A stretch of DNA of 64,000 bases, from positions 320,001 to 384,000 of the forward strand of contig JAJREF010000001.1 in the NCBI GenBank assembly GCA_047459655.1, written 5' to 3'. The DNA is from Rhabdochlamydiaceae bacterium. GTDB taxonomy: Bacteria; Chlamydiota; Chlamydiia; Chlamydiales; Rhabdochlamydiaceae. The translations under genes and the position numbers were made by a program. This document shows, piece after piece, positions 47,609 to 49,589 of this stretch. Below the pieces are notes generated by a model. That model saw only the letters and a program-made list of their open reading frames with translations. It did no database searches and was not told the origin of the DNA. Within the stretch, counting starts at the first letter, position 1; each line of letters starts with the position of its first letter.

Positions 47609-48151
47609 TCAAGATCCTTGCATACTATGATTTTTTTGTAGTTCTGGTTTCTTTTTAGCTCCTGGAGCTAAAACAACCGATAAACTTCTTCCTAACATCT
47701 TTAGTGGCGCTTCAGGGGCTGCAATATCAGAGAGGTCATCACACATGCGGCGTACAACCTTTCTCCGAACTCGGTATGCATCATTTCCCTACCCCGGAAC
47801 GTACACGTAATTCTAACTTTGTTTCCCTTCAAAATAAAATCCCTGGCATGTCTTCAGTTTTGTTGCAACATCATGCTCATCGGTATTAGGCTTTACCTTA
47901 ATTTCCTTCACCTTAACTTGGTGTTGGGCCTTTTTATTCTCTTTGTCTTTCTTCGTCTGCTGGTAGCGGAACTTCCCAAAATCAACAATCTTACAAACAG
48001 GAGGTTCAGCTGAGGCAGAGATCTCAACGAGATCCAAACCTACCAACTCAGCTTGTTGAAGCGCTTCAGCAAGAGTTAAAACTCCTAACTGTCCACCATC
48101 TTTATCAATAACCCGCACTTTTGGGGCTCTAATTTCTCTATTGACTTTCAA
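47609..48151 (-). CDS. infC: Translation initiation factor IF-3 (TTG start), frameshifted
   Basis: [30 protein letters not shown] and DEHD motifs. Confidence 0.95.
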
Positions 48152-49589
48152 GCTCTTTTTTCAACCTATCAATCAGTGTTTCTATTTTCATCGGCTCAGG
48201 TGCACTCGCACCATCAGGCCTTACCGAGAGAGTTTCTTAACTCTATTTCTCGATCCCCCAAAACAATACTATAAGGAACCCTTTCGCGCAATGCATGATG
48301 CATTCTCTTACTCAAATTTTCTTCGCTAAGGTCTATCCCTACTCGTATTCCCTCTTTATTGAGGGTAGATACAACATGTTGTATCTGTTTTTTCTTAAAA
48401 CCTATGACCCTGACTTGCTCGGGTGCCATCCAAAAAGGCAATTTCCCTTTGCAGGTCTCTAAAAATATCGCGACAAAGCGCTCTAAAGAAAAAATAGAGA
48501 CTGCACGATGACCTCGCGATCAAAATGCACACTCAAAGACGGCCCTTTCCACCTTCTCCCTAAGACATCAATCAAGTGGAATTCGATTGCGGAAACTGCC
48601 TTTTTCTCTTCTTTTGCCTCTATCTGACATTCTTCTAAGGCTTCACGAAGCAGTGCTGCATTTTTTGAGTGCAAAACTACTTCATAATCAAAGGAAAACA
48701 TTTTAAGGATTTTTACGATGAATTGCAAGGAAGAAATTAGTTCACGTAAAAGTTCCTCTTTTTTAAAGGGACTATAGGCTTGATCGATAAATCCGTAAGG
48801 AAGGTCTAAAAGCCCCTCCATTCCTTCCCCTTCTGGCAAAGGTAAATAAGCTATTTCAGCCGTACGCATTTTTCTTTCCTTCGCAAGATGCAGATGAGTA
48901 TCAAACATCTCTTCTAAACTCAAACTAGGCGTTGTTATAAACTGAAAATTTTGCTTACCAAGCTCCTCTTTCCAAAAACCGATCAATATTTCTTTGAGCT
49001 TTTCTCCCCTTGGAAGCCAAATCCAACCAGATTCTATTTCATCTAAAAGATCGAGCTCTTTAATCCACCTTGGATAGTGACGCTCGCCTATATTTTCCCA
49101 CTCTTTGACAAACTCTTTTAATTCAGATTTTTCAAAAAAAGCGGTTCCTACAATACGGAACCCGCCAGAAATAGGGATCATCTCAAGTAGTTTAAAATGG
49201 GTTACATCTGAGGTTTTTGTAGGCAGCAAGAACTCACAGATATCGACAAAATCCCCTACCTGAACAAGACGGACCAAAGGATCTTCTATGATAGAAACTC
49301 TCTCTTGAAGATCCTCTCTATCTAATGATGCAAAATATTCTTCAGCATTCCGGGGGACCATTTCCATGATGCGAAAAGGAACCGCCTTTTTGCTCTTCTG
49401 GCGCATGTTCTCTTCTATCAACATAAGAGATTCTTTAATGGAAGGCTGTAAGACCAAAAAATCGTAATAAAAACCCCAAGCAGTCGGGGTTCCACCTTTT
49501 AAGTAAGCTTGAGGGAATAGCTCTAAAACAGCAGCTGCCATTAGCTCTACGCACCCACCTCTAAGAGAATCTAAATTTTTATTGAACAT
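48138..49589 (-). CDS. Degenerate threonyl-tRNA synthetase paralogue (about 484 aa, probably catalytically inactive), 2 C-terminal frameshifts
   Basis: GFYYDF, RIVGTAF, WLPRG, DVLGRRW, SLERF, PFWMAPEQVRVI and VPYSIVLGDRE are collinear with ThrRS, but the key motifs are substituted. Confidence 0.85.

Follow-up and report, generated by a model that had tools for sequence, protein, structure and literature searches.

What keeps a gene for a threonyl-tRNA synthetase (ThrRS) in front of infC when the residues of its active site appear to be lost? Such a gene is carried by the window, the whole stretch of 64,000 nucleotides of Rhabdochlamydiaceae DNA analyzed here. An original prediction read its product as a pseudo-synthetase retained at the ancestral thrS-infC locus. 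The locus comprises the following features, in window coordinates.

49607 to 49682, minus strand: tRNA-Val(GAC) gene, head of the locus (ARAGORN)
48138 to 49589, minus strand: pseudo-ThrRS gene (N2, linker, catalytic-fold scaffold, and anticodon domain; TGS absent)
49140 to 49589, minus strand: N2 (editing-fold) domain without H73, H77, and H186; domain in 89/89 paralogs
49344 to 49364, minus strand: EMxPxNA family signature, protein level (E. coli positions 138 to 144)
49104 to 49121, minus strand: basic linker helix LKxFxK (K230, K234), protein level
48700 to 48737, minus strand: predicted internal sigma66-type promoter, ATTTCTTCC, encoding ISSLQFIVKILK; would serve infC-rpmI-rplT-pheS
48488 to 48488: assembly indel 1, one base missing (relative to genomes G001/G002 and contigs X2 and X3)
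48237 to 48237: assembly indel 2, one base extra (relative to G001/G002 and contig X3)
48141 to 48430, minus strand: anticodon-binding domain (Pfam PF03129, E 3e−11; E600 and R609 kept, R583H)
47813 to 48151, minus strand: infC, first frame, TTG start; further assembly indel at 47855
47413 to 47607, minus strand: presumed rpmI (L35), named by sequence and position
47153 to 47410, minus strand: presumed rplT (L20), first frame, named by sequence and position

Gene integrity, residue losses, and selection

As the original prediction stated, the pseudo-ThrRS gene starts shortly after tRNA-Val (ATG at 49589 on the minus strand, 17 to 18 nt downstream of tRNA-Val[GAC]) and its stop overlaps the infC start (TAG at 48140 to 48138, a 14-nt overlap with the TTG at 48151). 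The single uninterrupted 484-amino-acid frame that it described, however, is not present in the assembly. The first open frame covers 368 amino acids up to a stop at 48485 to 48483, a second break follows near 48237, and the motifs SLERF, PxWxAPxQV, GDRE, and VR sit in two further frames. Neither indel (behind 48488 and at 48237) occurs in the congeneric genomes G002 and G001 or in independent contigs (X2 and X3 for 48488, X3 for 48237). The gene is therefore intact, and its motif losses are genuine. With the two indels discounted, the protein has ~483 amino acids, and its G002 ortholog has 486. The indels do not explain the losses, as had been argued: all losses lie within the first open frame, and near-identical contigs from runs X1 and X5 cover positions 48616 to 49460 with 0 differing letters. 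Because these contigs match at every letter, the substitutions in the catalytic domain are not assembly errors; the positions of H73 and H77 fall outside this cover, and G002 carries identical residues there. Frameshifts are common in this assembly, with 13 of 32 genes split over frames in comparison with G002, and the infC indel at 47855 is missing in runs X1 and X3, which marks the assembly as error-rich. Between positions 45900 and 55800, infC, rplT, pheS, and murB-like genes are likewise broken by single-base indels.

Alignment to E. coli ThrRS confirmed the proposed loss of editing, Zn-ligand, SGHW-segment, and motif 2 Arg residues. The window protein carries H73G, H77E, H186L, D383Q, H385Y, and H511V, lacks the H309 segment, C334, and R363, and keeps D180 and C182. 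To describe the family, we scored eight key residues (H73, H77, H186, C334, R363, D383, H385, and H511) in 89 full-length paralogs, which keep none (33 proteins), one (42), two (13), or three (1) of them; all eight are present in 22/22 active chlamydial enzymes and in 15/15 enzymes from the PVC group. Cluster representatives at 50% identity show the same picture: of the best 150, 149 retain no more than three key residues, and the other one is canonical. The Zn ligands C334, H385, and H511 (for this role, see the passages of PMC7337905) occur in 2, 28, and 7 of the 89 paralogs, and the window protein has a gap, Y, and V in these positions. Motif 2 Arg363 occurs in 7 and D383 in 1 of the 89. 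The HxxxH and CxxxH motifs of trans-editing are also not retained (H73 in 9, H77 in 6, H186 in 11, and C182 in 33 of 89). The family thus lacks the residues for both threonine activation and editing.

The scaffold is better preserved. N2 and motif 1 are found in 89/89 paralogs and motif 3 in 87/89, the 300-340 segment is present in 17 and the anticodon domain in 46, and most of the conserved columns are structural ones shared with the active enzymes. An AF2 model of the G002 ortholog (pLDDT 90) matches 1nyq and 1qf6 with Foldseek TM scores of 0.72 to 0.75; the ThrRS fold and domain order are present. Covariation placed contacts within domains, and a clear interdomain pair was not seen.

The true thrS had been expected elsewhere in the genome, and we found it, in three frames, at C5:112743-114609; it has TGS, and its set of catalytic residues is complete. 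By sequence, we take the gene that follows it to be of ParA type. None of the 22 active chlamydial enzymes has lost any region from N2 through the anticodon domain.

We found that the pseudo-ThrRS gene is under purifying selection. Its first frame has a dN/dS (NG86) of 0.094 (0.067 to 0.124) against G002 and the frame behind the first indel 0.092, compared with a median of 0.099 for 32 genes of the same genome pair, a comparison in which the value for pseudo-ThrRS itself (0.166) is too high because its alignment runs over the indels. Over 12 congeneric pairs, values range from 0.09 to 0.23, and they are rough because several pairs have dS of >1.4; active thrS has 0.03 to 0.04. The N2 domain has 0.05 against G002, and N2 plus linker alone has 0.11 to 0.23 in 7/8 pairs, the eighth being saturated. 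With values far from 1 and intact orthologs in relatives, the gene is kept and not decaying, as originally claimed. We therefore rejected the possibility of a pseudogene or assembly artifact, since the indels are absent elsewhere and dN/dS is low, near the genome median. The protein combines a synthetase fold, an ablated active site, an intact active relative, and purifying selection, and its proposed status as a pseudo-synthetase stands. None of the three outcomes that had been named as speaking against it (no other thrS, motifs restored, or dN/dS near 1 without intact orthologs) occurred.

Distribution and origin of the family

The gene is widespread in Chlamydiota and is retained in most chlamydial families. 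A 41-genome search yielded 24 relatives in which a pseudo-ThrRS is flanked by tRNA-Val and infC or precedes infC where the contig ends, and a 151-genome search yielded 20 further relatives with one upstream of infC. Of 80 genomes then selected, with deliberate enrichment for doubtful families, 79 provided DNA upstream of infC; the gene is present at 49 of these 79 loci, absent at 29, and cut by a contig end at 1. Removal of 4 of the 49 as partial, split, or short left 89 full-length proteins of 307 to 591 amino acids. Presence was scored solely from infC-upstream DNA, and second matches in the 151-genome search were not counted as paralogs because some are short anticodon-domain hits in other synthetases. 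The expected orthologs upstream of infC across chlamydiae thus exist, each with no more than 3/8 key residues, and tRNA-Val lies directly upstream in 87/89 paralog loci at a median gap of 15 nt. Cultured chlamydiae are probably included: the gene immediately preceding infC is listed as thrS-like, in addition to a second thrS, in the RNA-seq tables for Protochlamydia (pc0701), Parachlamydia (PUV_RS05920), and Waddlia (WCW_RS04425) (tables of PMC5451489, PMC7474615, and PMC6090853), which opens the function of the gene to testing.

The gene has been lost in no fewer than seven family codes (f1, f3, f5, f19, f20, f25, and f35), often leaving tRNA-Val near infC. All five loci of f20, presumably Chlamydiaceae, are without pseudo-ThrRS, and one f20 locus that was read carries nusB- and murB-like genes in its place. 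In L135 and other f20 loci, tRNA-Val(GAC) is on the strand opposite to infC, 2 to 2.5 kb upstream of it, and genes resembling those for NusB, MurB, and a methyltransferase fill the interval, an arrangement that suggests an inversion when pseudo-ThrRS was lost. Unrelated open reading frames of ~350 and ~240 amino acids replace the gene between tRNA-Val and infC in L121 (G102) and L110 (G119), respectively. In L128 (G034), the paralog lies in two frames and is either a pseudogene or an assembly error.

To place the family, we examined trees of 85, 36, and 20 rows. In all of them, the paralogs form one clade (support, 100), and the active enzymes of chlamydiae fall together with ThrRS of the Clostridia type (support, 93, 95/87, and 84, respectively), although the donor is tentative because reference sampling was uneven (4/64 parts scanned). 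A settled sister group of the paralog clade was not obtained in any of the three trees. AU tests reject the monophyly of paralogs with active enzymes (P = 3e−5 under LG+G4; P = 0.003 under C20) and that of active enzymes with PVC (P = 3e−5); they leave paralogs with PVC unrejected (0.36; 0.16 under C20), a grouping that the trees do not recover. We therefore rejected the notion of the paralog as a duplicate of the active ThrRS. The ancestral position of the gene was upheld: at 13/15 PVC thrS loci, infC is directly downstream. The absence of TGS was correctly seen but appears to be ancestral, since 14/15 PVC ThrRS also lack this domain. Of 56 columns that discriminate PVC enzymes from the active chlamydial ones, the paralogs lean toward PVC at 22 and toward the chlamydial enzymes at 6, many of the PVC states being general bacterial ones. 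Among 80 loci, 8 nonchlamydial ones have tRNA-Val(GAC) upstream. Given the AU rejection and the TGS-less thrS at this locus in PVC relatives, the dead copy is probably the thrS that chlamydiae had first, before an acquired enzyme took its place. We infer a xenologous replacement in the chlamydial ancestor, with the old gene retained.

Predicted promoter within the coding sequence

Constraint on the gene also acts at the level of DNA. The original prediction omitted a predicted promoter inside the pseudo-ThrRS gene, which consists of a −35 element TTGCAA (48728 to 48723), a spacer of 17 nt, and a −10 element TAAAAT (48705 to 48700), and whose hexamers, spacing, and DNA-level conservation are those of the sigma70/sigma66 type. 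The codons of I398 to F403 are frozen (ATT in 61/62, TCC in 57/58, TTG in 76/79, CAA in 49/50, and TTC in 55/60, with backgrounds of 0.15 to 0.59), and synonymous divergence is 0.11 in the promoter bin versus 0.39 to 0.60 upstream of position 380. The −35/−10 pattern is in register in 72/87 paralog loci, 210 to 750 nt before the pseudo-ThrRS stop, and the element is unique in the source genome. Because none of 15 PVC thrS genes has the element at the corresponding position, it is likely a chlamydial invention.

The element can outlive the gene. Among the 29 loci without pseudo-ThrRS, 7 have high scores that exceed those of all 60 shuffles and 10 reach P < 0.05. The promoter persists upstream of infC in L110 (G119), L160 (G113), L134 (G117), L096 (G075), and L154 (G081); in G119, it is kept almost letter for letter, and in G113, a 54-amino-acid remnant spans it. 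Given the frozen codons and the survival of the element after gene loss, the ISSLQF motif mainly reflects DNA constraint, and the candidate protein-binding motif ISSLQF..KI was dropped once the codon test revealed the frozen synonymous codons. We infer that the coding DNA carries a sigma66 promoter that would be active for infC-rpmI-rplT-pheS.

The 120 nt that follow the predicted promoter (window positions 48575 to 48693 and orthologous segments) fold into more stable structures than shuffles (mean z, −1.5 versus −0.6; z < −2 in 13/40, compared with 5/40 in the control), frequently with a 5′ hairpin. A common leader structure was not seen by eye, and, among Rfam models, tRNA alone matched in 11 loci.

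At the gene level, RNA of the thrS-like gene exceeds that of active thrS in Protochlamydia, Parachlamydia, and Waddlia (tables of PMC5451489, PMC7474615, and PMC6090853). Counts for the thrS-like gene, active thrS, and infC are 3644, 917, and 4759 in Waddlia, and log2 values are 10.8, 9.3, and 12.7 in Parachlamydia (tables of PMC7474615 and PMC6090853); both sets could be accounted for by the internal promoter as the sole source. In Protochlamydia, sense RNA of pc0701 (log2, 14.5 to 15.6) is ~8 to 14 times that of infC (11.4 to 12.1) at all stages (supplement 2 of PMC5451489), an excess that might stem from an abundant leader, from a small RNA encoded within the gene, or from overlap with the tRNA. 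The pc0701 protein was not detected among the 231 EB proteins in the proteome supplement of PMC5451489, and production of the protein is suggested by the selection that acts on it.

Possible functions and relation to known systems

M139 (235/238) and N143 (204/238) are nearly fixed in paralog sequences, which overlap partly; among 39 active enzymes, they occur in 4 and 0, respectively, and K230 (215/238) and K234 (217/238) compare with 22 and 5 of 39; H150 (179/238), A157 (190/238), and A523 (199/238) are rare in the active enzymes. Synonymous codons are used freely at M139, N143, H150, A157, K234, and A523, codons flanking EMxPxNA are unbiased, and the linker lysines use AAA and AAG at background. 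Protein-level novelty is centered on N2 and the linker (M139, N143, H150, A157, K230, and K234).

We tentatively hypothesize that the protein is a dispensable, noncatalytic RNA-binding accessory factor of translation that acts through N2 and the basic linker. The original thrS would have been displaced by an acquired enzyme in the chlamydial ancestor and the old copy retained; selection would act on a surface formed by the remodeled N2 and the row of lysines along the linker helix, supported by a class II core that is probably a dimer; the ligand would be a structured RNA (a tRNA body or rRNA, as in mL39) read without the anticodon; and the coding DNA would double as the predicted promoter of infC-rpmI-rplT-pheS. 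In favor of an RNA-binding factor, mL39 matches the pseudo-ThrRS profile over N2 (E 6e−4, positions 38 to 136). However, the basic signature rests on two lysines, and the N2 hairpin, presumably the contact to the tRNA acceptor stem in E. coli ThrRS, is reduced in 45/89 paralogs. The protein is also missing from the 231-protein EB set (PMC5451489, supplement), and 29/79 infC loci are without the gene. A more specific form, in which the displaced ThrRS was recruited through a rebuilt N2 as a lineage-specific ribosome- or tRNA-associated factor, in parallel to mL39, with the gene doubling as the IF3-L35-L20 promoter and 5′ leader, is rather unlikely.

We give little credence to an inactive subunit that heterodimerizes with the active ThrRS and stabilizes or tunes it, as SLIMP would. 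Motif 1 in 89/89 and motif 3 in 87/89 paralogs are consistent with a dimer, and precedents exist in ThrRS heterodimers of Anabaena (passages of PMC4787780) and in SLIMP, a dead subunit of SerRS2 (PMC10570016). But no domain or motif is missing from the active enzyme (22/22), so that there is no complementary loss, and it works alone in 29 genomes; W266 is kept in the paralog and is I in the active enzyme, the 300-340 segment is gone in 72/89, and the new signatures lie in N2, not motif 1. A HisZ-like scaffold, whose remodeled N2 surface would bind an unrelated protein or small ligand instead of RNA, would account for M139, N143, H150, and A157, which are new, nearly fixed, and close in sequence to the old editing cleft; D180 is often kept. 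It is improbable, given that a partner gene that travels with pseudo-ThrRS was not seen and that the gene stays in a translation operon.

Could the gene instead be a vestige, kept by cis needs alone (the promoter and infC start signals) and by selection against misfolding? The constraint on the DNA is real, erosion is progressive and in frame (307 to 591 amino acids), losses recur in at least seven family codes, and the remnant in G113 lies over the promoter region. A pure vestige is nevertheless unlikely because the promoter needs no open reading frame (7/29 above all shuffles; 10/29 at P < 0.05) and because the 290 codons upstream of it, which are unable to be polar on infC, are close to the genome median in dN/dS. 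A vestige would not be expected to gain new invariant residues, and pseudo-ThrRS is kept in a 0.8-Mb genome (G037). Least credible to us is a translational regulator whose anticodon domain recognizes a tRNA-like element, either in its own operon or in active thrS. The 46 domain-bearing copies keep E600 in 43 and R609 in 40, with R583 changed to H or Y in 31, E. coli ThrRS autoregulates by such binding (passages of PMC7373986), and the 120-nt segment behind the promoter shows the excess of folding over shuffles noted above. But TGS is absent and the anticodon domain is lost in 43/89; therefore, binding of tRNA-Thr or an operator through that domain, which the original prediction had offered as a role, is not general. 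An E. coli-type operator before active thrS was not seen either: the 7-nt CGU loop of a conserved Thr-loop hairpin occurs in 0/24 leaders, although the control recovered it; 11 loci searched lack an Rfam leader, and a shared leader structure was not seen by eye.

Pseudo-synthetases as a kind are already known from HisZ, SLIMP, and mL39. mL39 has a TGS domain, lacks the catalytic core, and is a fixed mitoribosomal subunit; like pseudo-ThrRS, mL39/MRPL39 contains a ThrRS N2-like fold, as reflected in the profile match. In E. coli, an internal infC promoter lies within the thrS coding sequence, and the predicted chlamydial one is likewise inside the upstream thrS-type gene, at 210 to 750 nt before its stop. 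Pseudo-ThrRS shares with bacterial ThrRS (1qf6, 1nyq; TIGR00418) of the TGS-less PVC type the fold, domain order, motif 1 and 3 scaffold, and locus before infC, and differs in the lack of Zn ligands, motif 2 Arg, and editing histidines, in large deletions, in an optional anticodon domain, and in new N2 signatures. HisZ, a dead HisRS paralog, is also a bacterial pseudo-synthetase on a class IIa core, but it regulates HisG in histidine synthesis, whereas pseudo-ThrRS has no known such partner and is defined by N2. SLIMP, a dead SerRS paralog and subunit of animal mitochondrial SerRS2, is likewise a near-full-length class IIa protein with an ablated active site beside an active relative; it supplies a domain lost by its partner (PMC10570016), whereas in chlamydiae the active enzyme is complete and the dead copy is dispensable and no duplicate. 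Anabaena T1/T2, archaeal ThrRS-ed, and ThrRS-L are also second ThrRS-type genes with altered function, but they retain charging or editing, and pseudo-ThrRS lost residues for both.

The openly readable literature searched yielded no printed description of the family. It is not described in the passages of PMC5388404, PMC9437257, PMC4787780, PMC7373986, PMC7337905, PMC5451489, and PMC4652624, and a text-string search of the available text of the synthetase papers PMC5388404, PMC9437257, and PMC4787780 found no mention of chlamydiae. Pseudo-ThrRS is a real, conserved family with a dual-use coding sequence that is apparently undescribed. It is a phylum-wide pseudo-synthetase family that likely arose through displacement by a foreign gene, not duplication, its states span a series from a nearly complete protein to a bare promoter, and it provides a clear case of a promoter that mimics a conserved protein motif.

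Annotation mislabels members of the family, either as a second ThrRS or as hypothetical proteins; the Atlas enters them as the latter, most commonly in Chlamydiota. Against the TIGR00418 cutoff of 383.65, the G002 ortholog scores 176 bits and 3/4 paralogs fall below, but the cutoff can be exceeded: the dead paralog of G035 (L024) scores 450 bits without the catalytic residues and would be annotated as an active ThrRS.
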